Positions 22,949 to 60,954 are shown, counted from the stretch's first letter. The stretch: 64,000 nucleotides of DNA from Oligoflexia bacterium (GCA_903845155.1 CAIMWN010000018.1:5594-69593), one strand, 5' to 3'. The notes: generated from the letters alone by a model not told the origin. Program-made: numbers and translations.

Positions 22949-22963
22949 AAGGGGGGCCTCTCA

Positions 22964-24052
22964 GTGCGCATTTTTCTCGTCACATTTACAGTCCTCGTTT
23001 TAGGGGTAGGGGGCTTCAATTATTGGATTGATCCCACTCATTGGCATCATTCTTTGAACGAGTTCACTGCACCTCTACAAAAAGGTGAAGTGAGAGTGCT
23101 TGGACGAGCGGTAGATGAGCGGTTGCTTAAATTGTCGTTGATCAAGTTTGCTCCACCCGCTGATGCTGTCTTGATGGCGAGTTCAAGAGGGCTTTTAGTT
23201 CAAGAGAAAATGTTTCCTAGCCCATGCCGTTTTTTGAATTTAAGTGTGCCCAATGGATCTATTCCCGAATTTGTCGCATTTTGGGAAGCCGTCAAACTTA
23301 CTGGTCATCTTCCTAAGACCTTGATTATTTTTCTGGACCCCTGGAGTTTTAATGCGAACGGAGAACTGGGAGATCAGTCCTGGCTTTTTAAGACGGGTTT
23401 GCTCGAACAGTTTAAGATTGAACATGGGGTCATTCCCACCATGAAGGCAAAACTCAGTAATGAATGGAAGCGATGGAGTGAGTTCGAGAGTCGTTTCTTT
23501 GATCTATTTACCTGGAGCAATTTTACAGCTTCGGTGAAAATATATGATGAGCAAGGGGGGCCTGAGCGTGACCCGTATCAGGTTGTATCTGAAGGCCAAG
23601 TACCTGAAGGCAAAGCAAGCTTTGCTTATGATGGATCCTATTCTGATCCAAAAAACATGAGCCCGATTTCACAGCAAGAAATTGAGCAAAGGGCGCGGAC
23701 AGAGCCTTCCCGTATGGATGACCCACAATTCAAAAACTATAAACAAGATCCTGAACTCTTTAATTTGTTGATGGTTTTAGCTTGGGATGCACTCTGGAAG
23801 GGCACCGAGGTGCATTTCGTCATCCCTCCTTTGCATGATGTGACTCGAAATCGACTTAATAAGCTTTCGTGGACAAAAATGATCCTTCCTGATTTTGAGT
23901 CAGTTTTGAACCTAATTCATGCTCGAAATCCAGGCATTGTGATTTGCAATTTACTGGACGCCTCGCTTGCCGGTTGTGCTCCGTCGGAATTCTTAGACGG
24001 GCTGCACATGAATCGCGATTGCGCTGCAAAAGTAATCAAGAAATGCTTTTAG
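22964..24052 (+). CDS. MBOAT partner protein (DltD/AlgJ-like, N-terminal membrane anchor)
   Basis: GTG start with SD gggggg (7-nt spacing) immediately after the MBOAT gene. Single N-terminal TM then an extracytoplasmic domain. Assignment is mainly by context. Confidence 0.45.
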   Translation: MRIFLVTFTVLVLGVGGFNYWIDPTHWHHSLNEFTAPLQKGEVRVLGRAVDERLLKLSLIKFAPPADAVLMASSRGLLVQEKMFPSPCRFLNLSVPNGSIPEFVAFWEAVKLTGHLPKTLIIFLDPWSFNANGELGDQSWLFKTGLLEQFKIEHGVIPTMKAKLSNEWKRWSEFESRFFDLFTWSNFTASVKIYDEQGGPERDPYQVVSEGQVPEGKASFAYDGSYSDPKNMSPISQQEIEQRARTEPSRMDDPQFKNYKQDPELFNLLMVLAWDALWKGTEVHFVIPPLHDVTRNRLNKLSWTKMILPDFESVLNLIHARNPGIVICNLLDASLAGCAPSEFLDGLHMNRDCAAKVIKKCF

Positions 24053-24100
24053 ACTGAGACTTTTCTTTACCTCTCTGCTTGCCCTTGGCATAATGAGGAG

Positions 24101-25561
24101 GTGCGAAATACGATAGTTTTATACTTAAACGGCATACGCTGCGAGCTGAGCGGAGACCTCGCTTTCATGACGGTGTCCGATTATCTCCGCTATCAAAAGG
24201 GCCTTACTGGTACCAAGGTAGTATGTGCTGAAGGCGACTGCGGTGCTTGCACAGTGCTCGTGTCGCGGATGGTGAATGGCAAACTTGGATCATACCAATC
24301 GATCAACTCCTGTATTAGTTTTATGTATCTGCTCGATTTGTGTCACCTCATCACGGTAGAGGGCTTAAAAAAAGAGGAGACACTTCATCCGGTTCAAAAG
24401 GCAATGCTTGATTCTAATGGCGCTCAATGCGGGTATTGCACACCTGGATTTATTTGTGCAATGGCTGGCCTGACTGAAGATGCAAAAAATGGGAAATTTA
24501 TTTTGGAAGAAAAGCGAGTTAAAAACTATTTGACTGGCAACCTTTGTCGCTGCACCGGTTACGACTCTATTATTCAAGCCGGTTGCTCGGTGAATGCTGA
24601 AGCGGCTCCTTCATTGCGCGTACTGTACCAGGATGAAGAAATTGAAAAGGATTTAAAATCACTTTCGGGCCAAACAGTGTGCCTGAAAGGCGCCCAGCAA
24701 GAGTTTTGTGCCCCGGCGACTTTATCTGAAGCGCTGACATTAAAAAGTGTAAATGTGGATCTGAAGCTCACCTCAGGAGCGACAGATCTAGGTGTACTTT
24801 CTAATAAGGGAAAATTAAAATTATTAAAAACGCTCACCCTTAATCATGTGGATGAGCTGTATTCGGTAAAAGAGGACACATCTTCACTGATGGTTGGAGC
24901 TAAAGCCTCGTTGACAGCGGTGGAAGAGGCCTGCCGAACACTTTTCCCGGCATTTTCAAACTACCTTCACATTTTTGCTTCGCCTCAAATTAAAAATGCA
25001 GGCACCCTCATTGGTAATGTGGTGAATGCATCTCCGATTGCCGACACCATTCCATTTTTAAAAGTAGCAGAAGCAGAAATAGGATTGAGTAGCGTTCGCG
25101 GAGAAAGAGTGCTCAATCTCAATCAGTTTTTTAAACCCGGCTACAAACAGCTCGATCTTTTGCCTGATGAACTCGTGACGCATGTGAAAATTCCAAAATC
25201 CCATGCAAAGTTTAAACTTTATAAAGTTTCCACGCGCAAAGACCTAGATATTTCTACCGTTACCTTTGCCGTTCGTTTTGAGTTAGTAGGTGACATCATT
25301 AAAAATATTTCTTTTGCATTCGGGGGTGTGGGGCCGAGCGTACTGCGCATGACTGAACTTGAGAAACAAGCAATTGGCAAAAAATTCGAGCCCGCACTCT
25401 TTAAGGCGCTTGCTCTAAATTTGCAGTCTATGATCACACCGCTGAGTGATGTTCGCGGAAGTGCGGACTACCGTCAACTACTGTGTCACAATCTGATGCT
25501 TAAGTTTTGTGACGAAGTGACGGCTGAGCTGGGGCTCCAATCTGCGGGGATTTCGGTATGA
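24101..25561 (+). CDS. xdhA: Xanthine dehydrogenase small subunit (2Fe-2S + FAD-binding)
   Basis: Two [2Fe-2S] cysteine clusters (CAEGDCGACTV; CGYCTPGF...CRCTGY) followed by a FAD-binding CO-dehydrogenase-flavoprotein-like domain. GTG start. ATGA overlap with xdhB. Confidence 0.9.
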   Translation: MRNTIVLYLNGIRCELSGDLAFMTVSDYLRYQKGLTGTKVVCAEGDCGACTVLVSRMVNGKLGSYQSINSCISFMYLLDLCHLITVEGLKKEETLHPVQKAMLDSNGAQCGYCTPGFICAMAGLTEDAKNGKFILEEKRVKNYLTGNLCRCTGYDSIIQAGCSVNAEAAPSLRVLYQDEEIEKDLKSLSGQTVCLKGAQQEFCAPATLSEALTLKSVNVDLKLTSGATDLGVLSNKGKLKLLKTLTLNHVDELYSVKEDTSSLMVGAKASLTAVEEACRTLFPAFSNYLHIFASPQIKNAGTLIGNVVNASPIADTIPFLKVAEAEIGLSSVRGERVLNLNQFFKPGYKQLDLLPDELVTHVKIPKSHAKFKLYKVSTRKDLDISTVTFAVRFELVGDIIKNISFAFGGVGPSVLRMTELEKQAIGKKFEPALFKALALNLQSMITPLSDVRGSADYRQLLCHNLMLKFCDEVTAELGLQSAGISV

Positions 25562-27900
25562 GTGTCGGGAATAGTATTCCTCATGATTCAGGCTTGGGTC
25601 ATGTCTGTGGCGAAAGTGTTTTTATTGATGATCGTGCTGAAACTCGTGGTGAAGTACACGTGGGCTTAGTCTGTAGTTCCATTGCGTGCGGTGATTTAAT
25701 TGAAATAGATGCAAGTGAGGCACTCAGGCATCCCGATTGTTTAGGGGTATTTACCGCCAAGGATTTCGTGCATAAAAAATGGGGAACCATTGTCCATGAC
25801 CAACCATTTTTGGTGGAAGACAAAATAAATTATATGAGTGAGCCCGTTTGCATTGTGGCTAGCCGCACACGGGATTCCATTGAAGCAATTAAACATTTAG
25901 TGAAGTTACAGGAAAAAGCGGCAGCAGGTATTTTTACCATTCAAGATGCCAGGAAAAATCAGTCTGTGATTTACCGCGCACTGAAGCCTTTTGTACAAGG
26001 AAACGTGGATCAAGCATTGAAGATGGCCCCTCATAAGCTCACCGGAACGTTTACGGTGGGTGGGCAAGAACATTTTTATATGGAATCGCAAGCGGCGGTG
26101 ATTTACCCACTTGAGAATGGGCAACTTGAAATTCATTCATCAAGCCAACATCCCAGTGAAACTCAGCGTACCGTTGCCGAGGCTTTAGGTTTATCGCTTC
26201 ATCAAGTGGTGTGTGTGGTGAAGCGTATGGGCGGGGGTTTTGGTGGCAAGGAATCTCAGGCAGGCCCTATTGCGGCTTATGCTGCATTGGTCGCTCAAAA
26301 GTTAAAGAAACCTGCTCGACTCATTCTCACTAAAGATGAAGACATGAAAATTACGGGAAAAAGACACCCTTTTCAGAATGAGTACGAAGTCGCTTTCGAC
26401 GATGACGGTAAAATTCTAGGAGTGAAGGTACTACTTCAATCAGACGGAGGAGCGTACGCGGATCTTTCTGCCTCTATTCTCGATCGGGCGATGTTTCACT
26501 TCGATGGAGTCTATTATTTAGAGAACGTGCACATCGATGCTGTTTGTTATCGAACGAACAATCATTCGAATACTGCATTCAGAGGTTTTGGTGGTCCACA
26601 GGGAAACATGACCATGGAAAGCATTATCGAAGATATCGCACATTTTTTGAAAAAGGATGCAGCCGTCGTGCGACTTCGAAACCTTTATCAAGGTCCGAAC
26701 GTCAAAACCCCGTACGGACAAAATCTTGAAAACAATATGCTGCCTGAGATTTTTAGACAACTCATCACTACTTCGGAGTATGAAAAGCGCCGAGTGGAGA
26801 TTGATAAGGAAAATCTAAAAAAAACAGGGGTGCTTCGCGGGATTTCCATCACCGGCACAAAGTTTGGAATAGCCTTTACTGCGCGTTTCCTTAATCAAGG
26901 GAATGCCCTCGTCAATTTGCATTTGGATGGGACTGTACAGGTGAGCACTGGTGCGACTGAAATGGGCCAAGGCGTGAACACTAAGATTCAGCAAATCGTA
27001 GCGCATGGTTTTGGGATTGAATCCGGATCAGTTCAAGTGATGACGACTTCTACAGAGAAAAATCATAATACCTCGCCTACGGCAGCATCCAGTGGTTCTG
27101 ATATTAATGGGGCGGCAGCGCTGAAAGCGGTAAACAAGATTAAGGTGAATTTAATAGGGCTTGCTCGTAAGAAATTCGCCGGTGAAGTGAGTTCCGCATT
27201 GAAAGAGTATGAGTTAGAGCAGAACGCGGAAACCGTGCCTTTAGATCCGAATTTTATCTTTCAACATGGTAAAGTAGTGGAACTTTCCACCAAAAAGGAA
27301 ATCTCTTTAAAAGAGCTCATTAGCATCGCTTATCAAAATCGTGTTTCTTTAGGTGCCTATGCACATTTTAAAACTGGTGGCCTTGGGTTTGATAAAGAGA
27401 AAGTGGAAGGCAAAGCGTTCAATTATTTTACGCAAGGAATGGCCGTGAGCGAAGTTTCTGTTGATGAATATACCGGTGAAGTGAAGGTTTTACGTGTAGA
27501 TCTATTGATGGACCTGGGTCGTTCTATTAATCCCGGTATTGATCGCGGGCAAGTGGCGGGAGGCTTTGTGCAAGGGATGGGGTGGGTCACTACTGAAAAT
27601 CTTTTTTACGATGAAAGACGAAATCTTATTTCTCATTCTCCGACTACTTATAAAATCCCAAATATTCAAGATACGCCACGCGAATTTAATATTCATTTTA
27701 TTGAAAACCTAAATAACGACTGTAATGTGTACGGTTCAAAAGCCGTGGGGGAGCCACCACTCTTGTTGGGGTCAAGTGTGTGGACAGCCGTAAAACATGC
27801 GCTCAGTTATCGGTCGAAAAGCAACATGGTAAACCTCACATCTCCTGCGACGGGCGAAGTGGTGTTAATGGAATTGACTCGCTTAAAGAGGAGCCCTTGA
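25558..27900 (+). CDS. xdhB: Xanthine dehydrogenase molybdopterin-binding large subunit
   Basis: 780 aa; aldehyde-oxidase/xanthine-dehydrogenase a/b hammerhead and MoCo-binding blocks (GGGFGGKE, GQGxxTK). Confidence 0.9.
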   Translation: MSVGNSIPHDSGLGHVCGESVFIDDRAETRGEVHVGLVCSSIACGDLIEIDASEALRHPDCLGVFTAKDFVHKKWGTIVHDQPFLVEDKINYMSEPVCIVASRTRDSIEAIKHLVKLQEKAAAGIFTIQDARKNQSVIYRALKPFVQGNVDQALKMAPHKLTGTFTVGGQEHFYMESQAAVIYPLENGQLEIHSSSQHPSETQRTVAEALGLSLHQVVCVVKRMGGGFGGKESQAGPIAAYAALVAQKLKKPARLILTKDEDMKITGKRHPFQNEYEVAFDDDGKILGVKVLLQSDGGAYADLSASILDRAMFHFDGVYYLENVHIDAVCYRTNNHSNTAFRGFGGPQGNMTMESIIEDIAHFLKKDAAVVRLRNLYQGPNVKTPYGQNLENNMLPEIFRQLITTSEYEKRRVEIDKENLKKTGVLRGISITGTKFGIAFTARFLNQGNALVNLHLDGTVQVSTGATEMGQGVNTKIQQIVAHGFGIESGSVQVMTTSTEKNHNTSPTAASSGSDINGAAALKAVNKIKVNLIGLARKKFAGEVSSALKEYELEQNAETVPLDPNFIFQHGKVVELSTKKEISLKELISIAYQNRVSLGAYAHFKTGGLGFDKEKVEGKAFNYFTQGMAVSEVSVDEYTGEVKVLRVDLLMDLGRSINPGIDRGQVAGGFVQGMGWVTTENLFYDERRNLISHSPTTYKIPNIQDTPREFNIHFIENLNNDCNVYGSKAVGEPPLLLGSSVWTAVKHALSYRSKSNMVNLTSPATGEVVLMELTRLKRSP

Positions 27901-27902
27901 GC

Positions 27903-28703
27903 ATGGAACAGAGTCTCCCTCAGTTTTGCGAGCGCTTTTTAGAGCTTTATCAAAATAAAACTCCGATGGTAGTCGTGACCCTAACCGATATGGTAGGACA
28001 TGCACCGCAAGATGTAGGCGCAAGAATGATCGTCGGAACGGACGAAATTTATTTCGGGACCGTGGGCGGCGGTAAGCTTGAAAAGCGTTGTATTGATTTA
28101 TCACGCGAGTTTCTAACATCAAAAATTCCAATTAAAAATCAGTCCCATCAATGGAACCTGCCACGCGATATTGGAATGACTTGCGGTGGAGAGGTGACCC
28201 TTTATTTTGAAACTTATAAACCTGAAGAGACGTGGAAGATTGCAATCTTTGGTGCGGGACATATTTCTCAGGAGTTAGTCCCCATATTGCTAAAATTAAA
28301 TTGTGAACTAACCGTCGTTGATCCGAGGCCAGAGTGGTTAAGTCGATTGCCCCATTCTCCTCGTTTGAAGAAGATTCAAGAAGAGAATATGCCGCTAGTG
28401 CTAGAGACTTTAGATTCGAACACTTTTGTTGCCATCGTGACCATGGGGCACGCGACCGACTACCCATTGGTGAAGCTAGCACTTGAAAAACATCATTTTC
28501 CCTATCTAGGAGTCATTGGAAGTAAAGTGAAGAGAATTAAAATGAACGCAGATTTGATAGCGAGCGGAATTCCTGAAAAGCTAGCTAAAGAGGGATTTTA
28601 TTTACCCATGGGTGAAGATTTCGGCAGAAACACACCGGCCGAAATTGCCTTAAGTATTGTGGCGCAATTGTTGAAAACAAGAGATCAGCTCTTCAATCCG
28701 TAG
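27903..28703 (+). CDS. xdhC: XdhC-family molybdenum-cofactor insertion chaperone
   Basis: XdhC/CoxI N- and C-terminal Rossmann-like halves (VVVTLTDMVGHAPQDVGARMIV...GGG...IFGAGHISQELV). ATG 27903 with SD aagaggag is preferred to the ORF-track start at 27780, which would overlap xdhB by 120 nt. Confidence 0.8.
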   Translation: MEQSLPQFCERFLELYQNKTPMVVVTLTDMVGHAPQDVGARMIVGTDEIYFGTVGGGKLEKRCIDLSREFLTSKIPIKNQSHQWNLPRDIGMTCGGEVTLYFETYKPEETWKIAIFGAGHISQELVPILLKLNCELTVVDPRPEWLSRLPHSPRLKKIQEENMPLVLETLDSNTFVAIVTMGHATDYPLVKLALEKHHFPYLGVIGSKVKRIKMNADLIASGIPEKLAKEGFYLPMGEDFGRNTPAEIALSIVAQLLKTRDQLFNP

Positions 28704-31700
28704 ACATGCATGCGGTTGATGCCGCCGTCCGGATATACCGTTACTTTGATTTGCTTAAATTCCTGTGAAGAGTGAATTCTAAATTCTATTTTATTCCCAG
28801 CATATGCTTTCACATTGGTTTTGGGAACGAGGATGTTCCATTGATCGCCGCCTGAAAGTGTCAGACCCTGAAGACTCAACTCAAAGGGATTATTGTTTCT
28901 AAAAAATGTAAAATCAATTTCAATGCGATGAATTTGAGAAGGGCGCCCCAGTTCAACAGTTACTTCTTCGAAGTGTCCCTTCGTTCTGCTTCTTGCTGAC
29001 TCGGATCCATCAAACATATTTACCGGAGGATAAGGCGAGATCATTTGCACTGCAGGACTGTAATGTTCGTTCGTGGCACCCGTAATTTTTCCTCCATAGG
29101 CGAGGCATGCAAGATCTACCTCAGCACCTTCAGGTAAGCGATCCCAATTCTGTTGAATGGTAGTAGGTGTGGCATTGTATTTGGGTGTCAGTGGCCGCAC
29201 CGGGTGCGGAATGGGATCAGGAAAAAGAATATTCTTTGCTTGATCTAATGGCTGAAAGTTAATTTTATCTTGTTCGGGCAGTGATTCATTAAATAGGCCC
29301 ACACGCGACAAGCCCCCGTCTGGATACATGGATACGCGAATAGTTTTGTAGGTGGTGTCATCCTTTGCGAGTTGCACTTGCTTTAAAGAGTGACCTTCTA
29401 GTTTCAATTTAGGTAAGATTACTTTCCACTGGTCTGATCTAATATCTAGGCCTTCAATCGTGACGGCCTCGGGATGATTTCCTTGATGAAATTGAGTAGA
29501 GAGTGAAACAAAGTGGATTGGAGAAGGTTTCTTCAATTGAAAGGTAAGACTGTCTCGAGGGTCGTGTGCAGGTTTGTAATTATGTCTGACGCTCTCCCAG
29601 CTATCCATGATTTTCCCCTGACGGCCATACAGTTCGGGATCAAATATAGGAAGGTTCGGCGACAAAAGGTTTTCAGCTCGTGCAAAACGCTCGTTGGTGA
29701 CCTCCAGTATTTTACTTCCTACCGCTAAGTTGAAGGGAGCCAGTGGGTCGGGCGTTCCTTTGATGGTGATTGCTTCTGGCTGGTCTGGTTTAAACGCTTC
29801 AAAAATAAGCCTTTTGTAGCCTAAATTCACTATTTCTTCCTGAGGAATGCTTGAGGTGTCGAAGTCAGATTTGAAAAGGGTGGTGTCCACTCCTTGAAAA
29901 TTGAGCTCCTTTAAAATAAGTTGTGCGGCCTCTGCAATAAACAGAACGCCTTTTGTGTCTGCATTGCACAGGATAACAAAGCCGAGTCCTCGATCTGGCC
30001 CCGAAAAACATTGAACAAAGAGACCACGAAAACCATCATTTGCTCCTTGATGAATGGCGAAGCGATTTGGGCCCGCTTCAGCAATAAAAACACCTAATCC
30101 AATATTCACTCCCATGAACTTCTGACTCAAGCGATCTTGGTCACCCAGCATCTGTATCGCCGTATCGTGCGAAATAGGACCTGAGCCCTTGATTGAATGG
30201 AAACTCTCGGTGAGCTTGCTTAAAAATGAAGCCATGTCTGAGGCAGTACCCATAGCACCGGCTGCAAAAGCTGGAAACTTCTTGCGGGTGCCTTTGACGG
30301 GCTCGCCTGAATCCAAATAACCATGAGCATAGTCAATGCCGGGAATTGTATTTTGCTCAAAGCTTAAATGGTGAAGCCCCAGTTCTTTGAAAAAATCTTG
30401 GGTCATTTCTTGAATACTCTTTTGTTCTAGTGATTCCAAGAGATGCTCGAGCACCAAGAACCCTCCGCCTGAGTATTGAAACGCAGAACCCGGTTCATGA
30501 AGTACGCCCACTTTGGGATATCCGTATTTTTGGTTGCCACTGAGAAGTTCCGAAATGCGAGGCATGGGCTCGTCCGCGGGAATCCCATTCACATAGTGCA
30601 TGTTTAATGCATTATGCTTCATCAGGTTTGCAAGTGTCACTTGGTTAGCCCACTCTGGACTATTTTTGTCCAAGGATTCTAATCTAAATGAAGAAGTGGA
30701 CTGTTCAAAAACGGAATTAACAGGAGTCGAAAGCGAAATGCCATTCTTTCTAAAATACTCAAGTGCAAAGGCGCTTGCCATCGTCTTGCTTAAGGATGCA
30801 AGCTCAAACCAAGTGTGCTCACCAACTCGTTCTTTCCCTCGCTGGCGATCACCAATGCATATGTTTTGTTTCGTCGTCAACGAGGTATTCACCGTGATGG
30901 TGGCGCCATTGACTTGGTAGCGAAGAAGTAATTGATTTAACTTTTCATGAAGATTTAAAAACGGCAGTTTCTTCAGCCTCTTGAGGCTGATTTCCCATAA
31001 AGCATTTCTTGCTTGAACGAGCTCCAGTTCCTGGGTGCTTTGTAAGCGCGTATTTAAATCAGCAAGTATCTCGGCGCTCGATTTTCCTTCTGCAGAAATG
31101 AGGTACTTAAACCCAAACTTCTTCAAGTAGCGGTCGCCCAATGCACGAAGTTCGGCCTGTGTCTCGGCGCCAGCTTTTAAAACAAGTGCTTGTTCTTGAG
31201 ATGCGACTTCATCGAGAGTTTTCTTGCTTTCGCCAATATTCCCGTGAAAGCTTGCGGCATGAAGGATGTCATCTAGGGTAAAGTTTTTTATAATCGTTTC
31301 AGCCTTCACCAAATCAACCGTGAGGTCAGAAGCAAGCGGGTGGGCAAACGAAACGCTTCCGCATATAGAAAAGTATTCGTTAAAACGTTGAATGTAATCT
31401 GTGCATAGAAACTTCTCAGGATCCAGTTTAGTCACGACATTCCAAGGGTCGCTTTCATTTCTGATTGACTCGACAGTAAACGGCAGTAAGAGTTCAGTTG
31501 CGAATTCGGGAGGGTGGGAACTTGTCATGAGTTTGATCATGATTTTCATTGCGATCCCGTACCATTTTTCAGTTCTTTCATCCCATTTCACTTGAACGAT
31601 TTTCTGAGCGTTCGATAAGTCTTTCCGAATGAAGAGCATTTCCTCATGAATAATTTTCAAGAATGCATCGATGCTAAATCGCCCATGATGAATCTCGTGC

Positions 31701-33433
31701 CAAACTTCCCAACGCGAGCGCTCCGCAGTGGCGAGGTCATCCATCACTCGTACAGAAACTCCATTGATGGTTGCAGGAAGTGCAACGCAGCCACGGCCTG
31801 ATAGCCAGTCGGTAAGGTACTGGAGTGATTGAAATACATTATAGCGGATTTCTTCGCTGTCGTTATTCGCTATAAATGGTGATTCCTTCATGTCGGCTAC
31901 AATTAATGACCGAGGATAGAGTGGGTGATGAGTGTCGAGGCCCACTATGTCTTTCCCGTGTATAAAACTCATCATGTCAGCGTGGTGCTCTTTTACTAGT
32001 AAACCTTCCACCATTTTTTGAAGAGGAGCAGAATCATTTTGTTGATGAAGTTCCCATGCGCGAACCAAGGCGAGTCCAATGCGAATAAAGTCTGGGTGGG
32101 CGACCCAAAAACCACTCAAGCCGCGCTTAAGCTGTGTGATCACATCTCTCATAAAACCTTTAATCGTCATTTGAAATGAGGCGCTCAGGCGATCATCGTC
32201 GATGGAAAGAATGCCATACATGCCGCCAATCTTAATCCCACCTCTTGAGCCCACCACTTCAGTGAGAAGATCGTGTGAGGCTTTGATGCATTTAATTACA
32301 ATATTCGGATCAGCCTTTACGGGAATTCGATAGTTTGAGTCCTCTCTAAATAAGCGTGCCGTTGAAGCGAGGTAGTCATGCCAACCAAGAGATGCACCAG
32401 CGAAGTAGGGATAGAGTGCGTCCATAATCTCATTCACGCGAAAGATCGCACGCGGATTTTCTAAAACGAGGAGTAAACGGATACTGCCCAACTTGTACGC
32501 GGAATGACGATTTTTGAGGAGTTTTTCTGTCGTTTCCACCATGTGATGAATGTAAAGAGCATCTTCTTCATTTTCTAGCTTGGGCACATAGAAGGTGAGG
32601 GCGGCTTCGTTTTCCCAATGTTTAAAACAATGGAGAGCAAAATCGTATAAGTGTAAAGGGATTGGTTGCTCACGGTAAAATAAGAAGGTGCAAGGCAGCG
32701 CGAGACCCGGAAAGCGTTTAATAGGAAGGGTGAGCCGTTCGCTTTCAATTTTGTAGGTTTTGTTATTTTTTGAGTCTGTAAAGCTTAAGCTCTGGTCGTA
32801 ACAGGCGTTCAGATTCATTGCTGCCGCGATTAAATCCTGTCGGATAGGCGTTTTTGAATCTTCATCATCCGCGCCCCATTTAGGAAGATCAGTGCTAGTT
32901 TCAAGCAATTCAGAAATAATGCTCGGTTCATCTTTGAGTTTACGATGAAAGGCATTCATCGCGTTGATACAGAGTTTTGCGTTATCGGGTGGACCAAAGA
33001 GAGTAACGTGATTTCCGCTCAAGTGCTTCGGAATAGGCGCAATGGGTTTGCCATAACCGCGTGTGCAGTAGTGTTCGTTTTTCGGCCCAAGCACAGTGCG
33101 GCCGTTTCCGTCTTCGTGGCTGATGACGGTTTCATATCGTGGATCCAGTAAATCAATTCCGAGTGTGCGATTGAGTTCGCTGCAAGCGCGCGTTCGTTGA
33201 TCAATAAATTGTCGATCTTGAGTGCGTTGAGAGAGTGTTGCAGCCAATTGCCCTTTCACGCCATCGTAAAGTTCGCATAAAAACTGAAGCGAAGATTGGG
33301 TCTCAAGGCCTCCACCTTTGCCTACTTCGCGAAGTTCAGGAATATTCGTAACGGGCTGGCTCTCAGCCAATAACTTGGAAAGAAGGGCCGGAGTAATATA
33401 ATCTTGATAATAGGGGATCTCTCGCTGTTTCAT
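28685..33433 (-). CDS. Four-module purine-catabolism fusion protein: malate-synthase-like / OHCU decarboxylase / serine beta-lactamase-fold hydrolase / allantoicase (two repeats)
   Basis: Uninterrupted 1582-codon ORF. aa 1-640 match malate synthase A blocks (VTLFGPPDNAKLCINAMNA; IRLLLVLENPRAIFRVNEIMDALYPYFAGASLGWHDY; FWVAHPDF). aa 650-825 match OHCU decarboxylase (SFHGNIGE; KKFGFKYLISAEGKSSAEILADLNTRL). aa 840-1180 carry SxxK (ASLSK), YxN (HYVNG) and HxG (IHQGANDG) of the beta-lactamase/PBP fold. aa 1200-1582 carry two allantoicase repeats (MDSWESVRH; GSESARSR) each ending YPDGG...R. ATGA-coupled to hiuH upstream. Confidence 0.8.
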   Translation of the reverse strand: MKQREIPYYQDYITPALLSKLLAESQPVTNIPELREVGKGGGLETQSSLQFLCELYDGVKGQLAATLSQRTQDRQFIDQRTRACSELNRTLGIDLLDPRYETVISHEDGNGRTVLGPKNEHYCTRGYGKPIAPIPKHLSGNHVTLFGPPDNAKLCINAMNAFHRKLKDEPSIISELLETSTDLPKWGADDEDSKTPIRQDLIAAAMNLNACYDQSLSFTDSKNNKTYKIESERLTLPIKRFPGLALPCTFLFYREQPIPLHLYDFALHCFKHWENEAALTFYVPKLENEEDALYIHHMVETTEKLLKNRHSAYKLGSIRLLLVLENPRAIFRVNEIMDALYPYFAGASLGWHDYLASTARLFREDSNYRIPVKADPNIVIKCIKASHDLLTEVVGSRGGIKIGGMYGILSIDDDRLSASFQMTIKGFMRDVITQLKRGLSGFWVAHPDFIRIGLALVRAWELHQQNDSAPLQKMVEGLLVKEHHADMMSFIHGKDIVGLDTHHPLYPRSLIVADMKESPFIANNDSEEIRYNVFQSLQYLTDWLSGRGCVALPATINGVSVRVMDDLATAERSRWEVWHEIHHGRFSIDAFLKIIHEEMLFIRKDLSNAQKIVQVKWDERTEKWYGIAMKIMIKLMTSSHPPEFATELLLPFTVESIRNESDPWNVVTKLDPEKFLCTDYIQRFNEYFSICGSVSFAHPLASDLTVDLVKAETIIKNFTLDDILHAASFHGNIGESKKTLDEVASQEQALVLKAGAETQAELRALGDRYLKKFGFKYLISAEGKSSAEILADLNTRLQSTQELELVQARNALWEISLKRLKKLPFLNLHEKLNQLLLRYQVNGATITVNTSLTTKQNICIGDRQRGKERVGEHTWFELASLSKTMASAFALEYFRKNGISLSTPVNSVFEQSTSSFRLESLDKNSPEWANQVTLANLMKHNALNMHYVNGIPADEPMPRISELLSGNQKYGYPKVGVLHEPGSAFQYSGGGFLVLEHLLESLEQKSIQEMTQDFFKELGLHHLSFEQNTIPGIDYAHGYLDSGEPVKGTRKKFPAFAAGAMGTASDMASFLSKLTESFHSIKGSGPISHDTAIQMLGDQDRLSQKFMGVNIGLGVFIAEAGPNRFAIHQGANDGFRGLFVQCFSGPDRGLGFVILCNADTKGVLFIAEAAQLILKELNFQGVDTTLFKSDFDTSSIPQEEIVNLGYKRLIFEAFKPDQPEAITIKGTPDPLAPFNLAVGSKILEVTNERFARAENLLSPNLPIFDPELYGRQGKIMDSWESVRHNYKPAHDPRDSLTFQLKKPSPIHFVSLSTQFHQGNHPEAVTIEGLDIRSDQWKVILPKLKLEGHSLKQVQLAKDDTTYKTIRVSMYPDGGLSRVGLFNESLPEQDKINFQPLDQAKNILFPDPIPHPVRPLTPKYNATPTTIQQNWDRLPEGAEVDLACLAYGGKITGATNEHYSPAVQMISPYPPVNMFDGSESARSRTKGHFEEVTVELGRPSQIHRIEIDFTFFRNNNPFELSLQGLTLSGGDQWNILVPKTNVKAYAGNKIEFRIHSSQEFKQIKVTVYPDGGINRMHVYGLKS

Positions 33434-33753
33434 GTGCCTCGATAGGTGGAGTATCCAAACGGGTTCAGTAAAAGTGGAACGTGATACTTTCGTTGAGTGT
33501 TTTCTACTTTAAAGATAACGGGTATGTCTTGGAAGAAGCATTCGGTAGATTTATTTTTAAAATAGTTTTCAATCTCAAAAATGATTTGATAAATCCCAAC
33601 ATTCTTTTCGATATCAAAGGAAAATCGGCCGTCCGCATTGGTCGTTCCCGCAGCGAGAGTGGTCCATTGGCCGCCATTTTTGATGAGCAACTTCACGGTG
33701 ACTCCAGAGGCAGCGGTTCCGAGACTCGTATCTAAAATATGAGTGCTGATCAT
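33430..33753 (-). CDS. hiuH: 5-hydroxyisourate hydrolase (transthyretin-like)
   Basis: 107 aa. N-terminal STHILDTSLGTAASGV and C-terminal ...YRGT (HIUase signature is YRGS). Confidence 0.8.
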   Translation of the reverse strand: MISTHILDTSLGTAASGVTVKLLIKNGGQWTTLAAGTTNADGRFSFDIEKNVGIYQIIFEIENYFKNKSTECFFQDIPVIFKVENTQRKYHVPLLLNPFGYSTYRGT

Positions 33754-33756
33754 TTC

Positions 33757-35366
33757 TTACTCCTTCTTAAACGAAAAATCTAAATTAATGGTTTCATTCT
33801 CTTTGACGGAAACTTTTTTAGACTGATTGCCAAATACTTCATGCCACGCTTCAAGGGTGTATTCACCTACGGGGATGTTCTTGATGATGAACTCTCCGGC
33901 ATCATTGGTCACGCTGTAAAAGGGATGATCCATTACTGCGATCGATGCACTCATCCAAGGATGTACGCTACATTTCGTCTGTACAAAAATCTCAGGGTGA
34001 TTGAAAATCTTGGTGACCCGATCATCTTTGCTTGGCATCGCAACATTGAAATTCTCATTCTGACTGGTGATTGATTTCACATTGTGAAATGTCGCATCGC
34101 TGTTGATGAAATCCACCTTTTGCCCCACACGTACGGCAATGACTCGAGGTTCATATTGGCAATTTTTTTGATCCAGAATTGCCGCTACGGCAGGCACGTC
34201 ATGATATTCTTTGCCTTCAAGGCCCTTCGAGATTCGGACAAGGACGTTTTTTAGTTTTCCATTGTTGATCATGATGTCGTTGGCGTAAGTGTCGCTTTTA
34301 TTTTGTTGTGCACAAATGAGTGGAAGTTGAAGTTTCTCACCGTGAAGTGCGGGACCATTAAACAGAGCTAATCCTTTAATGGTGCCAGTGGGGCCATTCG
34401 CTGCAGCCGATGGTTCAGTTGCTGGTGTATTCGTTGCAGTTGCTGCAAGGGGTGCCGAGTTCTCGTGGGTAAAGAAAATCACGCCAATGATCAATGCAAC
34501 TCCCACTAAACCAAACGCTTTAGATCGAGGTGGATTCTTTAAGCGCACCACGAAGAATTCCCGAATGGCTGCTCCCGCTGCACTCATTAACAAAAGAATG
34601 ATCCAATTGTATTGGTTTCCGTAAGTGGACGGAAAATGATTGCTGAGCATGATGAAGATCACGGGAAGCGTGAAGTAGGTATTATGGGTAGAACGATTTT
34701 TTGCGTTTTTCCCCCATTCCTGATTCACGGGCTCGCCTCTTTTAGACGCTTCCACCATTTTCAATTGGCGAGGAATAATGCGTAGAAAAACGTTGGCCGT
34801 CATCCAAGTACCGAGCATGCCGCCGATATGAATATAGGCAGCTCTACCGCTGAGTGTATGGCAGAGAAAATATGCCATCCCGCCAAACCAAAGGAGGGTG
34901 AGGGCGTGCGCAAGAACCGGAGTGGTTTTTGAAAATTTGGATTCCCATAAAAAATCATAAAAGAGCCAAGAACCCACCAGTGAGATGACACTCAGACCAA
35001 CCGCCTGAAAAAACGTAATGTGAGAGAGACGGAAGCGTCGAGAAGAAAAGTGCCACTTCCGGCGTAGAAAATCATGCAGATCAAAAAAATTCCGCTGAGC
35101 CAGGTCCAGTATGACTCCCATTTGAACCAATGGAGTGATTCAGGAACTTTGGTAGGGCCCATGAGAAGTTTCTCTACGTGGTAAAATCCACCACCATGAA
35201 CCATCCACAACTCACCCACATGTCCGTCTTTTTTTGATAGCTCATTGAACTCAATGGTGCGATCCAGCCACATGAAAAAGATGGAAGTTCCAATCCACGT
35301 AATGGCGACGGTAATATGAAGCCAGCGTCCTAGTAAAAGTAGCCAATCAAATAACTCTTGATCCAC
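33757..35366 (-). CDS. puuD: PuuD-like integral-membrane urate oxidase with C-terminal cupredoxin (type-1 copper) domain; apparent +1 frameshift in an A6/T6 run
   Basis: The N-terminal 124-aa ORF (GTG 35366, SD gagggg) reads WLHITVAITWIGTSIFFMWLD...GELWMVHGGGFYH...LHWFKWESYWTWLSG, as recalled for the Urate_ox_N/PuuD family. The membrane domain continues in another frame (ORF 33757-35130) after the run at 35009-35014. One extra base joins ...SVSLTLRFF|QAVGLSVISL... seamlessly. The C-terminus has His-x37-Cys-x2-His-x2-Met (FHNV...CSVHPWM), an amicyanin-like copper site, with no CxxCH. Confidence 0.5.
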
Positions 35367-35433
35367 AAATATCCCCTCATTTTGATGTTTTCAGCATATT
35401 GAATTTGAGCTGAAAGTACAGTACTATTTCTCG

Positions 35434-36753
35434 ATGCCCGGGCAAAATTACCGCTTCTTTCTCGCTAGTATTTTAAATCCAAAAAACGACACCAAGTGCG
35501 ATTATTTTGCGCATGGGATGTTGGTCGTTTGCGATCAGGGTAAACAGAGCTTCATTGAGGCCGTTCTCCCGTTCAATAAGGGCATGAAAAAATACTCAAG
35601 ACTCATGACCACCGCCAATACCACTGATTTTGGGAGTGCGGTGATCATGCCCGGATTCTTTGATATGCACTTTCATTGGGTGCAAGATGATGTTCGCACG
35701 CAACCCAAGGACTCTCTGCTTGAGTGGCTTGAAAAGTATACCTTTCCCGCTGAAATGAAATTTGCAGATCCAAAATATGCTGCAAGTGAGGCCAAGATTT
35801 TTTTCAAACGCTTGAGTCGAGTTGGCACATTGGGTGGCGCTTGTTATAGTTCTATTCACGGTCCGGCGCTGGAGTGCGCGATGAGTGAAGTGAAGGGGGA
35901 TTTCGTCATTGGGAATGTGCTGATGGATCAGTTTTCTCCGCCTGAGCTTACTCAGACGGAGGCTGAGGCAATTGCGCTCACCAAGAAGATGATTCGAAAG
36001 TTTGGGAGGAGATTTGCGTTTACCCCTCGCTTTGCAATCAGCACCTCGCCAGCGCTGATGAAAAAAGGAAGTAAGCTTGCCGACCAAGCTCATTGTTTTA
36101 AACAAAGTCACTTGTCAGAAAATCCGGCAGAAATTGAATTTGTTTTGAAACTCTATAAAAAGTTACCGGGTTACAAAAAGTGTTCCTCTTATACAGATAT
36201 ATACAAAAAGACAGGAATGCTCGGCAAGCGTTCACTGATGGGGCATGGTATTCATCTTTCCAGTGCAGAATTAAAAATGCTCCATGAAACAAAAACCACG
36301 CTCATTCATTGTCCAACCTCGAACGCGCCGATTCGAGAAAAGGGTCTTGGTTCTGGGCTTTTTGATTTCAAACGGGTTGAAAGAGCGAAAGTGCGTTGGG
36401 CACTTGGTTCCGATATTGGTGGCGGCCCCTTTTTATCGATGTTTGATGTGATGAGAAGTTTTGTGATTCAAAATAAGCGAGCCAAGGTGAAAGGTGCCAC
36501 TTTTGTAAAGGCGTTGTACCGTTCCACGCTCTCGGGTGCCGAGGTTTTTGGAATTGCTGCAAAGACTGGAAATTTAAATCGGAAGAAGGAAGTAAATTTT
36601 ATCGTCGTGCCGTTGAATGCTTCAAAGCCCCCCCATTCCGCGGAGGATGCATTGAAGCGCATTATCAATGCCCCAAAGGCGAAGCGAGAGTTGTTTGATC
36701 AGCTGCCGAGCGTAGTTTACTACCGCGGCAAACCTATCGTGAATCAAGCGTAG
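35434..36753 (+). CDS. guaD: Guanine deaminase
   Basis: Collinear with E. coli GuaD: PGFFDMHFHWVQ, SLLEWLEKYTFPAE, FTPRFAISTS, HLSENPAEIEFV, HCPTSN, LGSDIGGG. Confidence 0.85.
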   Translation: MPGQNYRFFLASILNPKNDTKCDYFAHGMLVVCDQGKQSFIEAVLPFNKGMKKYSRLMTTANTTDFGSAVIMPGFFDMHFHWVQDDVRTQPKDSLLEWLEKYTFPAEMKFADPKYAASEAKIFFKRLSRVGTLGGACYSSIHGPALECAMSEVKGDFVIGNVLMDQFSPPELTQTEAEAIALTKKMIRKFGRRFAFTPRFAISTSPALMKKGSKLADQAHCFKQSHLSENPAEIEFVLKLYKKLPGYKKCSSYTDIYKKTGMLGKRSLMGHGIHLSSAELKMLHETKTTLIHCPTSNAPIREKGLGSGLFDFKRVERAKVRWALGSDIGGGPFLSMFDVMRSFVIQNKRAKVKGATFVKALYRSTLSGAEVFGIAAKTGNLNRKKEVNFIVVPLNASKPPHSAEDALKRIINAPKAKRELFDQLPSVVYYRGKPIVNQA

Positions 36754-36838
36754 CTAAATCAAGCTTGATTACACTGCCTATTCTTGCACTGCTACTCACA
36801 CTTCGGTTCGTGTCTCAGAGTGAACCCTGCCTATTGTT

Positions 36839-37876: not shown

Positions 37877-37958
37877 TGTACTACGATTGCGTTCGAAAAG
37901 GGTTACAGAAAAAATAATTTATATTAAGTTAAAAAAACTTGAGTCGTGAAAATGACAC

Positions 37959-38360: not shown

Positions 38361-38420
38361 GGCCGTCCTCCTTCGTGACTTCATGATAACGTATTTTTCT
38401 AAAAATGCGATAGTTTAAGC

Positions 38421-38466
38421 GATCCAAAATTTTGGATCAGTTTTGGATCAACTTGATCCAAAACTG
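38421..38466. promoter_or_regulatory. Array of four GATC-containing half-sites forming two abutting perfect palindromes (operator-like)
   Basis: gatccaaaa|ttttggatc (38421-38438, 18-nt perfect palindrome), then cagttttggatcaa-c-ttgatccaaaactg (38438-38466, 29-nt perfect palindrome). It lies 60-110 nt upstream of the response-regulator start and overlaps a possible -35 (TTGGAT). Confidence 0.5.
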
Positions 38467-59427: not shown

Positions 59428-59435
59428 GATCGCTC

Positions 59436-60915: not shown

Positions 60916-60954
60916 ATGGCTCACCGTTGCCTCGATTACTGAGCAGTCAAAAAA

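Follow-up and report, generated by a model that had tools for sequence, protein, structure and literature searches.

A Bdellovibrionota purine catabolism cluster encoding a multidomain fusion protein with a predicted beta-lactamase-fold allantoinase and a malate-synthase-like domain

A gene cluster for purine catabolism was found at positions 24101–36753 of a 64-kb stretch of DNA (hereafter, the window) from a predatory-type Bdellovibrionota bacterium. The cluster comprises xdhABC, a gene for a fusion protein of 1582 amino acids, hiuH, a gene for a PuuD-like urate oxidase, and guaD. Our reading, to which we assign a probability of about 0.65, is that it constitutes a purine-catabolic unit of Bdellovibrionota whose fusion protein carries the steps from OHCU to glyoxylate, with a beta-lactamase-fold domain (BLA) as predicted allantoinase and a malate-synthase-like (MS-like) domain as predicted ureidoglycolate lyase. 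On the basis of clear homology, GuaD would convert guanine to xanthine, XdhABC xanthine to urate, and the membrane PuuD-type oxidase urate to 5-hydroxyisourate, from which HiuH would generate OHCU. In the fusion protein, the OHCU decarboxylase domain would yield (S)-allantoin, BLA would convert this to allantoate by opening its hydantoin ring, the allantoicase domain would release urea and (S)-ureidoglycolate, and the MS-like domain would release the second urea to give glyoxylate, which it may in addition combine with acetyl-CoA to form malate. A preliminary description of this DNA had proposed a self-contained guanine-to-glyoxylate cluster with noncanonical stand-ins at three steps (a membrane PuuD-type oxidase for soluble uricase, BLA for allantoinase and the MS-like domain for ureidoglycolate lyase), a proposal that the comparative evidence presented here supports.

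Table 1. Coordinates and supporting matches for genes, domains and a sequence feature of the cluster.
Feature	Position	Strand	Basis
xdhA, xanthine dehydrogenase small subunit (2Fe-2S and FAD domains)	24101..25561	+	Pfam Fer2_2, FAD_binding_5, CO_deh_flav_C
xdhB, xanthine dehydrogenase molybdopterin subunit	25558..27900	+	Pfam Ald_Xan_dh_C, MoCoBD_1, MoCoBD_2
xdhC, XDH maturation factor	27903..28703	+	Pfam XdhC_CoxI, XdhC_C
Giant fusion gene, 1582 aa (MS-like, OHCU decarboxylase, BLA, allantoicase)	28685..33433	-	Pfam and NCBIfam matches
Allantoicase domain, aa 1216-1582, two repeats	28688..29788	-	PF03561 177 bits, two stretches
BLA, beta-lactamase-fold serine hydrolase domain, aa 826-1215, candidate allantoinase	29789..30958	-	PF00144 88 bits
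OHCU decarboxylase domain, aa 691-825	30959..31363	-	PF09349 72.5 bits, residues 710-821
Malate-synthase-like domain, aa 1-690, candidate ureidoglycolate lyase and/or malate synthase	31364..33433	-	PF01274 66 bits, PF20659 39.3 bits
hiuH, 5-hydroxyisourate hydrolase, 107 aa, without signal peptide	33430..33753	-	PF00576 116 bits
PuuD-like membrane urate oxidase, split by 2-nt insertion	33757..35366	-	DUF989 (Urate_ox_N), cupredoxin-like region, CarboxypepD_reg beta-sandwich
(TC)4 run with frameshifting extra TC in puuD	35017..35030	-	window GTCTCTCTCAC vs L099/L100 GTCTCTCAC
guaD, guanine deaminase (amidohydrolase fold)	35434..36753	+	PF01979 104 bits

Pfam and NCBIfam searches recovered all of the genes previously listed for this interval (guaD, xdhABC, a PuuD-like gene, hiuH and the giant fusion). 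HiuH scored 124.3 bits against TIGR02962, above the cut-off of 87.45. The scores of the xanthine dehydrogenase genes were 420.7 bits for xdhA against TIGR02963 (xanthine_xdhA; cut-off 467), with profile position 1 falling on residue 5, 818.2 bits for xdhB against TIGR02965 (cut-off 849.5), and 154.4 bits for xdhC against TIGR02964 (cut-off 161.6). The best NCBIfam matches of guaD were the guanine deaminase models NF006679 (296.5 bits, cut-off 351) and TIGR02967 (284 bits, cut-off 375). Given that xdhC is called as a protein of 266 amino acids on L099, a metagenome contig 99.96% identical to the window, translation of this gene probably begins at 27903 and not at the mechanical ORF start of 27780. 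The xdhC and fusion genes are convergent and overlap by 19 nt at their 3' ends, the start of the fusion gene overlaps the stop of hiuH by 4 nt, and guaD and puuD are divergent with a spacer of 67 nt.

As the preliminary description had also stated, soluble uricase, canonical allantoinase and ureidoglycolate lyase were absent from the cluster, and no regulator or purine permease adjoined the cluster. The window has 57 ORFs of 90 amino acids or more. Pfam matches for ~47 of these included no allantoinase of the amidohydrolase or polysaccharide-deacetylase fold, no uricase and no pathway-type regulator; the remaining ~10 ORFs were assigned by inspection of their translations or through Pfam matches of L099. 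With seed proteins as tblastn queries, no ORF of the window matched AllA, AllB, AllC, AllD, AllE, Gcl, or nucleobase or allantoin permeases, and Pfam, NCBIfam and tblastn all failed to detect an AllB/PuuE-type allantoinase in the window. No riboswitch or other Rfam family was detected within 22000–39000.

The order puuD-hiuH-fusion was unchanged in four related loci (L001 to L004), with unrelated flanking genes. Among the fusion loci of 80 species-representative genomes, HiuH was encoded in 63, PuuD in 53 and Xdh in ~24, AllA, AllC and AllE were encoded in none, and no other gene family recurred in more than 10. No allantoinase gene was present within 10 kb of the fusion in any of these 80 loci, with polysaccharide-deacetylase (PuuE-fold) genes having been sought through Pfam matches and clustering of unassigned neighbors only. 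The lone AllB-like match (L014) was rejected as an allantoinase, being a dihydropyrimidinase (TIGR02033, 608 bits), and a deacetylase neighbor in L001 was of the secreted peptidoglycan-deacetylase type. Among 80 metagenome loci, the MS-like domain was present in 73, the other seven being cut at a contig end, and none contained an AllA or AllB-like gene. A xanthine/uracil permease gene lies beside the cluster in three relatives (L003, L035 and L077).

The Pfam domains of the fusion protein are, from the NH2-terminus, MS_TIM-barrel and MS_C (residues 242–646), OHCU_decarbox (710–821), Beta-lactamase (861–1163) and a pair of Allantoicase repeats that extend from residue 1239 to the COOH-terminus. 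All five of these domains were present in each of the 120 best database matches, of which 118 were full-length homologues from Bdellovibrionota (at least 1500 amino acids, 56–65% identity), so that there are at least 118 such proteins; the fusion is therefore a genuine gene and not an assembly artefact. The OHCU decarboxylase domain covers positions 40–155 of the 155 in the PF09349 profile, scores 74 bits against TIGR03180, and contains an F-H730-G-x-I-G motif that is invariant among the 118 homologues. The allantoicase domain retains a YPDGG motif in each of its two repeats and scores 195 bits against TIGR02961, under the whole-protein cut-off of 277.9. We infer channelling between the domains of the fusion. 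A full-text search of the literature yielded no paper that describes the fusion or that links a beta-lactamase-fold protein to allantoin or allantoicase.

The MS-like domain passed the Pfam cut-offs for both of its families (26.4 bits for PF01274 and 23.1 for PF20659), whereas its score of 137.7 bits against TIGR01344 (malate synthase A) was far under the cut-off of 594.5. The best PDB match of its AlphaFold2 model (pLDDT of 89) was E. coli malate synthase A (MSA; 3CV2/3CUZ), with a target-normalised TM-score of 0.81–0.82 and 23–24% identity. Residues R240, E325, D353 and D566 are invariant among 118 homologues and correspond to MSA R166 (catalytic), E250 and D278 (Mg ligands) and D447 (catalytic base), respectively, and Trp365 of MSA is kept as the invariant W443. 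R276 and W277 of MSA are replaced by the invariant residues W351 and H352, with the motif reading GWHDY as opposed to GRWDY. The domain shares no more than 54 of the 118 residues that are invariant in MSA (64 changed), and the conserved basic residues R90, R91, R168, H171, H320 and K353 are lost. At the positions of the acetyl-CoA pocket residues I94, T95, G96, M102, M330 and P369 and of the active-site residue C438 of the E. coli enzyme (PMC3112382), the residues present in the fusion are L, F, G, L, M, P and C, with six of these seven positions being identical or conservatively replaced.

A lyase activity for such a protein has an experimental precedent in the zebrafish MS-like protein DrMSL, which was shown to be a ureidoglycolate lyase (Dembech et al. 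2023, PMC10120013). Arg276 of MSA is replaced by Ile in DrMSL, and the acetyl-CoA site is lost; the UGL group as a whole is reported to be confined to eukaryotes and is characterized by replacement of both Arg276 and Trp365, no conservation at the acetyl-CoA site, and a two-residue insertion (PMC10120013). The partners of BLA-allantoicase also bear on this assignment. One bacterial contig, L095, has AllA in this role, L101 and the contig encoding P0129 have a separate MS-like gene, and the MS-like domain is fused in all other cases, with MS-like and AllA never occurring together next to BLA-allantoicase in the loci examined. The precedent and this alternation make the earlier assignment of the MS-like domain as a ureidoglycolate lyase plausible, but, because the domain retains the catalytic base and most residues of the acetyl-CoA pocket, it may still make malate, in which case the pathway would run on past glyoxylate; it may thus be a lyase, a synthase or both.

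Given that the domain fits the published lyase hallmarks poorly, it could instead be a divergent malate synthase only, converting glyoxylate to malate; ureidoglycolate would then break down spontaneously or be split either by the allantoicase domain or by an enzyme encoded elsewhere. According to its EC entry, allantoicase has activity on ureidoglycolate, a compound that also breaks down slowly without an enzyme. Spontaneous hydrolysis is likewise mentioned in PMC10120013. Retention of the four invariant catalytic and metal-binding residues and of Trp365, identity or conservative replacement at six of the seven positions named in PMC3112382, and MSA as the best structural match (target-normalised TM-score of ~0.82) speak for this alternative. 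We nevertheless consider it somewhat unlikely in view of the 64 changed MSA-invariant residues, the several conserved basic residues lost, the replacement of R276 and W277 in the glyoxylate site, the low TIGR01344 score, the mutual exclusion of the MS-like domain and AllA beside BLA-allantoicase, and the proven change from an MS-like protein to a lyase (PMC10120013). The assignment of BLA is untouched by this alternative.

For BLA, the class C beta-lactamase equivalog models gave at most 42 bits (NF033085, cut-off 415) against cut-offs of at least 415, and a true beta-lactamase was rejected. The AlphaFold2 model of the domain (pLDDT of 95.2) has the fold of R61 DD-peptidase, D-amino-acid amidase and class C enzymes, with Foldseek returning a probability of 1.00 to PF00144 structures at 16–21% identity. 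The residues S880-L-S-K883, H946-Y947 and H1128-Q-G1130-A-N-D-G-F-R are invariant in the 118 fusions, and the catalytic motifs are also invariant in 20 stand-alone homologues; an acyl-enzyme at Ser880 is proposed because SxxK, Tyr and HxG motifs are present. The family occurs in the architectures BLA-allantoicase, OHCU-BLA-allantoicase, MS-OHCU-BLA-allantoicase and BLA alone. BLA belongs to an undescribed family of serine hydrolases that is invariably associated with allantoicase and other ureide enzymes.

Contig L095 encodes, within 22 kb, AllA (45% identical to E. coli AllA), BLA-allantoicase, OHCU decarboxylase, a PuuD with CxxCH, HiuH and XdhABC. It is an intermediate form, in that its OHCU decarboxylase and AllA are still separate proteins, as is its PuuD, which has the cytochrome c domain. 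Allantoinase is the sole step from xanthine to glyoxylate that lacks a canonical enzyme on this contig, and BLA is the sole domain that lacks an assignment. In three eukaryotic proteins (P0172, P0286 and P0287), BLA is fused to Ureidogly_lyase (PF04115) and allantoicase, and two of the three end in SKL or SRL. PTS1-like COOH-terminal tripeptides were found in 13 of ~40 stand-alone or BLA-allantoicase homologues, and such tails would place these proteins in peroxisomes, where eukaryotic urate breakdown occurs. Given that L095 has all of the canonical enzymes except allantoinase and that protists have BLA-AllA-allantoicase fusions, BLA is probably a new (third) type of allantoinase, predicted also for protist peroxisomes. 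The preliminary description had placed BLA in the allantoinase position, and the family architectures, L095 and the eukaryotic fusions strongly support that placement.

Alternatively, AllB or PuuE might be encoded elsewhere in the genome, and BLA might act on another ureide or amide, serve as a ureidoglycolate amidohydrolase, or be a scaffold. The absence of allB and puuE indeed applies to the loci examined, and PF00144 enzymes act on many amides and esters. This explanation is unlikely, however. A purely structural role is hard to reconcile with the invariant catalytic motifs, and a role downstream of allantoinase would be redundant because L095 and the eukaryotic fusions already have a canonical ureidoglycolate lyase, leaving allantoinase as the only missing neighboring reaction. 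The lack of an allantoinase within 10 kb in all 80 genome loci, the lack of AllA and AllB-like genes in all 80 metagenome loci, and the order OHCU-BLA-allantoicase, which is that of the pathway, also favor BLA as the allantoinase.

The PuuD-like protein had been described as a membrane urate oxidase. This description holds for the repaired protein, which matches Urate_ox_N over profile positions 3–293 of 295 (355.5 bits), but the gene is not a single ORF in the window. Residues 1–114 are encoded at 34992–35366 and the rest at 33757–35130; tblastn with the intact homologue of L001 placed amino acids 1–114 in frame -3 and 113–537 in frame -2. The split is due to one surplus TC within the (TC)n run that occupies 35017–35030. 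Metagenome contigs L099 and L100 have (TC)3 at this site and an intact gene for 535 amino acids, the indel being the sole gap in a 24.7-kb alignment (99.96% identity) of the window with L099/L100, and deletion of two nucleotides gives back a single ORF for 535 amino acids. It is improbable that the pathway is inactive in the source organism through a slipped-strand TC insertion that made puuD a pseudogene, possibly as a reversible on/off switch, since, although the insertion lies in a (TC)n run and is the only gap relative to two independent assemblies, those assemblies carry the gene intact, the other cluster genes are all intact, the 36 full-length homologues are all uninterrupted, and indels in dinucleotide runs are also typical of sequencing or assembly error.

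A CxxCH heme c motif was absent from the window PuuD-like protein and from all 36 full-length homologues. All of them have instead a CxxHxxM motif of the amicyanin type, with a CarboxypepD_reg beta-sandwich after it; the repaired protein contains CSVHPWM, and its matches to the Copper-bind and amicyanin profiles are weak. By sequence, a cupredoxin-type copper motif is located where cytochrome c usually sits, and electrons from the oxidase are probably routed through a cupredoxin-type copper domain and not through cytochrome c. The puuD frameshift and this motif were absent from the preliminary description, as were the finding that the fusion is widely conserved among Bdellovibrionota and the permease-bearing relatives.

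A wider interpretation is that BLA is a third, serine-hydrolase type of allantoinase common to Bdellovibrionota, a small number of other bacteria and the peroxisomes of protists, and that the MS-like domain is a bifunctional lyase and malate synthase. We put this forward tentatively and regard it as doubtful as a whole. If it is true, a single polypeptide would channel OHCU through to malate and would represent, in a present-day organism, the bifunctional MS/UGL ancestor that Dembech et al. (2023, PMC10120013) postulated. A predator could then burn prey purines for carbon and energy, and its copper-dependent PuuD would deliver electrons to the respiratory chain.

Canonical proteobacterial purine clusters (xdhABC, guaD, puuD, hiuH, OHCU decarboxylase, puuE, alc and allA) share the reaction order and most of the enzymes with the window cluster, whereas four steps are here placed in one polypeptide, allantoinase and ureidoglycolate lyase are predicted to be swapped for nonhomologous or divergent domains, and regulator and permease genes are absent from the window. 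PuuD, the integral-membrane cytochrome c urate oxidase (COG3748/DUF989; Doniselli et al. 2015, PMC4562309), resembles the window protein in its full-length DUF989/Urate_ox_N membrane domain, in the adjoining hiuH and OHCU decarboxylase, and in the absence of soluble uricase; the window protein differs in having CxxHxxM and CarboxypepD_reg in place of the COOH-terminal cytochrome c with CxxCH. AllB/PucH (amidohydrolase fold) and PuuE/HpxB (polysaccharide-deacetylase fold) catalyze the conversion of allantoin to allantoate proposed for BLA, at the same position in pathway and cluster, but have no sequence or fold relationship to BLA, a PF00144 serine hydrolase. BLA shares its fold and the SxxK, Tyr and H/K-x-G motifs with R61 DD-peptidase, D-amino-acid amidase, class C beta-lactamases and family VIII esterases, from which it is set apart by 16–21% identity, by invariant residues peculiar to the family (an H preceding the catalytic Tyr, YSGGG and HQxANxGxR) and by its exclusive association with ureide enzymes. 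Malate synthase A (E. coli AceB, 3CUZ/3CV2) and the MS-like domain have in common the fold, R166, E250, D278, D447, C438, the W365-x-A-H-P369 motif and M330, whereas they differ in overall sequence (24% identity), in 64 of 118 invariant residues, including R276W and W277H, and in ~150 extra residues in insertions of the MS-like domain. DrMSL and its UGL relatives (PMC10120013) are, like the MS-like domain, divergent MSA-family proteins tied to allantoicase and purine catabolism in which Arg276 is replaced and the glyoxylate and metal ligands are kept; the domain described here is in contrast bacterial, is fused to allantoicase, and keeps Trp365 and most of the acetyl-CoA pocket.

The preliminary description had placed guaD, xdhABC, a PuuD-like urate oxidase, hiuH and a large fusion gene between positions 24101 and 36753, and ORF listing together with profile searches bore out this gene list. 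The puuD, hiuH and fusion genes overlap or nearly abut one another and form one minus-strand operon that is convergent with xdhABC, and guaD and puuD are divergent with a spacer of only 67 nt. Pfam domains of the fusion are, from the NH2-terminus, the malate synthase TIM-barrel and C-terminal domains (the MS-like region, residues 1-690), an OHCU decarboxylase, a PF00144 beta-lactamase-fold (BLA) domain at residues 826-1215 and two allantoicase (ALC) repeats, as had been proposed. In the profile search, HiuH scored above its NCBIfam equivalog cut-off, and Xdh, GuaD and the allantoicase found their top NCBIfam matches in the expected families yet scored somewhat below the equivalog cut-offs.

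Locations of the features discussed, in window coordinates unless a contig of a relative is named
Feature	Location	Strand	Basis
xdhA	24101-25561	+	ORF listing and profile search
xdhB	25558-27900	+	ORF listing and profile search
xdhC	end 28703	+	ORF listing and profile search
Fusion ORF, 1582 codons	28685-33433	-	ORF listing and profile search
hiuH	33430-33753	-	ORF listing and profile search
PuuD-like gene	33757-35366	-	ORF listing and profile search
C-terminal third of PuuD-like protein (amicyanin-like motif, beta-sandwich)	33757-34400		
Its counterpart in L001	8040-9653		
(TC)4 run in PuuD-like gene	35017-35030	-	
guaD	35434-36753	+	ORF listing and profile search
MBOAT-family acyltransferase and 362-aa protein	21584-24052	+	
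DUF4423-family HTH gene	5279-6184	-	
DUF4423-family HTH gene	40873-41718	+	
S1/P1 nuclease	7363-8259		
Astacin metalloprotease	20577-21557		
Trypsin-like protease	56880-57674		
CoA-transferase, aminotransferase and dehydrogenase run	57708-62523	-	
Pyrimidine-catabolism set of L014	15752-21155		
Operon region with second divergent "malate synthase A" in L006	8845-13598		
BLA-ALC, MS-like and PuuD genes of L101	385-8495		

Neither an allantoinase, a ureidoglycolate lyase, a uricase, a nucleobase permease nor a pathway regulator was found by Pfam annotation of about 47 of the 57 window ORFs or by tblastn of the window (seeds AllA, AllB, AllC, AllD, AllE, Gcl and permeases), in agreement with the absences first reported. 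An Rfam scan of positions 22000-39000 gave no family match, and hence neither a riboswitch nor any further RNA regulator; consensus scans for promoters and terminators performed equally well on shuffled sequence. The flanks are unrelated to purine catabolism, encoding an astacin, an MBOAT protein and its partner, MsrAB, a response-regulator receiver, a GST and an Rrf2 regulator. Immediately upstream of xdhA, and on its strand, are the genes for the MBOAT-family acyltransferase and an adjacent 362-aa protein without a match in Pfam or NCBIfam, an arrangement kept in the near-identical contig L099. The two are probably an unrelated AlgI/DltB-like pair. Neither of the DUF4423-family HTH genes, of which a relative's contig (L002) carries another, adjoins the purine genes. 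An S1/P1 nuclease and several secreted proteases are also encoded in the window; the nuclease, astacin and trypsin-like protease fit a predatory Bdellovibrionota lifestyle with nucleotide supply from prey. Further downstream, two CoA-transferase subunits (Pfam) form a run with an aldehyde dehydrogenase and a class III aminotransferase, the latter two identified by eye from translations only; the run resembles an operon for the catabolism of amines or omega-amino acids and has no evident link to the purine cluster.

All five Pfam domains were present in each of the 120 best protein-database matches to the fusion, and 118 of these were at least 1500 aa long with 56-65% identity, which rules out an assembly artefact. 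Named sources were Bdellovibrio, Bacteriovorax, Bacteriovoracaceae and Oligoflexia. The proteins are labeled "serine hydrolase" by NCBI and "malate synthase", "allantoicase" or "CubicO group peptidase" by JGI, with "beta-lactamase class C family" also current. A scan of species-representative genomes yielded 229 relatives, the best 80 of which were all fusions and included those of the cultured Bdellovibrio sp. HCB337 and HCB2-146, Peredibacter sp. HCB2-198 and Oligoflexus tunisiensis (strain Shr3). We annotated these 80 loci, with 10-kb flanks, by means of seed proteins and domain HMMs: HiuH was detected in 63, PuuD in 53 and Xdh in about 24, counts that are lowered by the many short contigs, and AllA, AllC, AllD, AllE and Gcl in none. 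Clustering of the unassigned neighboring ORFs gave only families confined to 10 or fewer of the 80 loci. Given that the puuD-hiuH-fusion unit recurs with different neighbors, it is a self-contained module moving among changing flanks; some relatives (L003, L035, L057 and L077) add xdhABC, a xanthine/uracil permease and adenosine deaminase.

Two candidates for a conventional allantoinase in these loci were rejected. A polysaccharide deacetylase beside the fusion in L001, considered as PuuE, has a signal peptide, matches only peptidoglycan deacetylases and is missing from the other loci. The single AllB-like gene, in the closest genome relative (L014), is a dihydropyrimidinase within a reductive pyrimidine-catabolism set (methylmalonate-semialdehyde dehydrogenase, dihydropyrimidinase, carbamoyl-amidase, aminotransferase and NCS1 permease) located 5 kb downstream of the purine operon.

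The BLA domain was modeled by AlphaFold2 with a pLDDT of 95.2, and the model matched DD-peptidase R61, D-amino-acid amidase, family VIII esterases and class C beta-lactamases at 16-21% identity. Residues S880-x-x-K883, H946-Y947 and H1128-Q-G-A-N-D-G-F-R are invariant in 118 fusions, and the domain scored far below the cut-offs of the beta-lactamase equivalog models; it is predicted to be an active serine hydrolase and not a beta-lactamase. When 1.84 billion representatives were searched exhaustively with HMMER, 105 proteins reached E ≤1e-30. Local domain annotation of the best 150 gave the architectures MS-OHCU-BLA-ALC, OHCU-BLA-ALC, BLA-ALC and BLA alone, and the only further fusion partner among close relatives was AllA (PF04115). 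A metagenome scan with the single protein P0157 gave no match, and a repeat with an alignment recovered chiefly four-domain fusions.

Stand-alone BLA and BLA-ALC proteins come largely from eukaryotic transcriptome collections (MMETSP and EukProt). Thirteen of about 40 such proteins, from eukaryotic transcriptomes and metagenomes (P0139, P0149, P0151, P0153, P0159, P0164, P0167, P0215, P0172, P0275, P0277, P0279 and P0280), end in a PTS1-type tripeptide (SKL, SRL, AKL, AKM, ARM, CRL or PRL), tails that would place them in peroxisomes and that point to a peroxisomal branch within the family. Peroxisomes are the site of eukaryotic urate degradation.

The BLA domain was assigned a role by its partners. 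Three proteins from independent sources (P0172, P0286 and P0287; 52-54% mutual identity) combine BLA, an AllA-type ureidoglycolate lyase (PF04115) and allantoicase in one chain with the BLA motifs intact, and two of the three end in SKL or SRL. Side by side in the bacterial locus L095 (GCA_050294595.1) are genes for AllA (45% identical to E. coli AllA), BLA-ALC, OHCU decarboxylase, a canonical PuuD with CxxCH, HiuH and XdhABC. In this locus and the tri-domain fusions, all steps from xanthine or urate to glyoxylate are canonical except allantoin to allantoate, and BLA is the sole unassigned catalytic domain. A role for BLA downstream of allantoicase would duplicate AllA and is therefore disfavored there. 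We infer that cyclic-amide hydrolysis is characteristic chemistry of the fold. Because allantoinase is the sole unfilled step, AllA is already present and the fold chemistry suits cyclic amides, we consider BLA a probable new type of allantoinase, at odds of roughly three in four. Its suggested occupation of the allantoinase position thus gains strong comparative support from L095 and the tri-domain fusions. Our literature search found no report of a BLA-type allantoinase or of this four-domain fusion.

Separate, adjacent genes occur in two further places: BLA-ALC (774 aa), a fusion-type MS-like protein (737 aa) and a cytochrome c-type PuuD in the contig L101, and MS-like (589 aa), a 160-aa gene and BLA-ALC (711 aa) in the contig of P0129 (GCA_041443045.1). 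These arrangements resemble intermediate steps in the fusion or fission of the genes.

The model of the MS-like domain (pLDDT 89) best matched E. coli malate synthase A (MSA), with a target-normalised TM score of 0.81-0.82 and 23-24% identity. The zebrafish malate synthase-like protein is a ureidoglycolate lyase without synthase activity, marked by Arg276Ile, Trp365Met, loss of the acetyl-CoA site and a 2-residue insertion; its group comprises eukaryotes only, and a bifunctional ancestor is one proposed scenario (Dembech et al. 2023, PMC10120013). We aligned eleven fusions with eight true MSAs (E. coli and plasmid or chromid records of seven genera). Catalytic R166, E250, D278 and D447 are preserved in the fusions, as is Trp365, and an invariant Trp and His take the places of Arg276 and Trp277, respectively. 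Of 118 MSA-invariant residues the fusions keep only 54, and several conserved basic residues are lost. Residues corresponding to I94, T95, G96, M102, M330 and P369 of the E. coli acetyl-CoA pocket and to active-site C438 (Bracken et al. 2011, PMC3112382) are L, F, G, L, M, P and C, respectively. The domain therefore fits neither a plain MSA nor the published lyase marks (PMC10120013). At 63-70% identity it is the most conserved part of the fusions, and it forms a subfamily of its own under strong constraint.

BLA-ALC is partnered by AllA in L095 and the protist fusions, by an unfused MS-like gene in L101 and the P0129 contig, and by a fused MS-like domain in all other loci examined; AllA and MS-like never occurred together with BLA-ALC in these loci. 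Because the two alternate in this way, lyase activity of the MS-like domain is somewhat favored. The catalytic base and CoA pocket are kept, so that synthase activity may persist, for which we see even chances; possession of both activities is rather unlikely. The proposal that this domain stands in the lyase position is thus made plausible by its alternation with AllA, but the sequence marks (base, CoA pocket and Trp365 kept) are ambiguous.

A divergent "malate synthase A" of Deinococcus plasmids was rejected as a member of the fusion-domain clade, sharing 22% identity over 175 residues and keeping GRWDY, with the fusion domain nearer to E. coli AceB. On the plasmid of Deinococcus sp. QL22 (L006, NZ_CP097154.1), this second malate synthase (29.7% identical to AceB) heads an operon for allantoate amidohydrolase, allantoinase and ureidoglycine aminohydrolase, which adjoins glycerate kinase, xdhABC and guaD. 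Such genes lie on about 10 Deinococcus plasmids, besides a normal aceB; the L006 gene is a further bacterial MS-like gene in a ureide operon, of another clade.

A membrane PuuD-like urate oxidase is encoded as described, but not as a single ORF: the gene is broken across two frames at a (TC)4 run. Removal of one TC restores a 535-aa protein that is collinear with its homologues and matches Urate_ox_N over its full length. The exact window protein P0001 has no contig record, and the cluster member P0283 leads to two metagenome contigs (L099 and L100). Over 18.7-24.7 kb these match the window at 99.96% identity, and they carry (TC)3 and an intact 535-aa puuD, this indel being the sole gap in the alignment. 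The break therefore does not characterise the lineage and is either strain-level slipped-strand variation or an error of assembly. CxxCH is absent from the protein of the window and from each of 36 full-length homologues, and all of these proteins have CxxHxxM preceded by a conserved His (CSVHPWM in the window, as in amicyanin); a CarboxypepD_reg-like beta-sandwich follows. Whereas described PuuD (Doniselli et al. 2015, PMC4562309) has a cytochrome c domain at this position, the Bdellovibrionota proteins have CxxHxxM and the beta-sandwich, and the simplest reading of these motifs is that a copper redox domain substitutes for haem c.

In the proposed pathway, GuaD would convert guanine to xanthine and XdhABC xanthine to urate, which the PuuD-like protein would oxidise to 5-hydroxyisourate with electrons passing to the cupredoxin. 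HiuH would then yield OHCU, and the fusion would decarboxylate this to (S)-allantoin, open allantoin to allantoate through a Ser880 acyl-enzyme (BLA), release urea and (S)-ureidoglycolate (allantoicase) and cleave the latter to urea and glyoxylate (MS-like), with condensation of glyoxylate and acetyl-CoA to malate as a possible last step. Neither HiuH nor the fusion has a signal peptide, so their steps would be cytoplasmic. The cluster contains no urease or nitrogen-assimilation gene, which together with the malate-synthase ancestry suggests recovery of carbon and energy from prey purines more than nitrogen scavenging.

The purine pathway itself is well known; what is new is the four-domain enzyme, a candidate third allantoinase family with members also in protist peroxisomes, a bacterial MS-like partner of allantoicase and a putative cupredoxin-type PuuD, which would broaden the chemistry known for a therapeutically relevant enzyme class. 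Only two types of allantoinase are known, AllB and PuuE, and these are unrelated. A serine-based third form, if true, would be a non-homologous enzyme for a textbook reaction, would correct systematic misannotation as "serine hydrolase", "malate synthase" or "beta-lactamase class C family", and could explain why allantoicase occurs without a recognisable allantoinase in some genomes and protist transcriptomes. Among bacteria, the MS-like domain is the first candidate for a malate synthase-derived ureidoglycolate lyase, a type that was reported in 2023 from eukaryotes alone (PMC10120013), and, with its acetyl-CoA pocket kept, it informs the evolution of the lyase from malate synthase.
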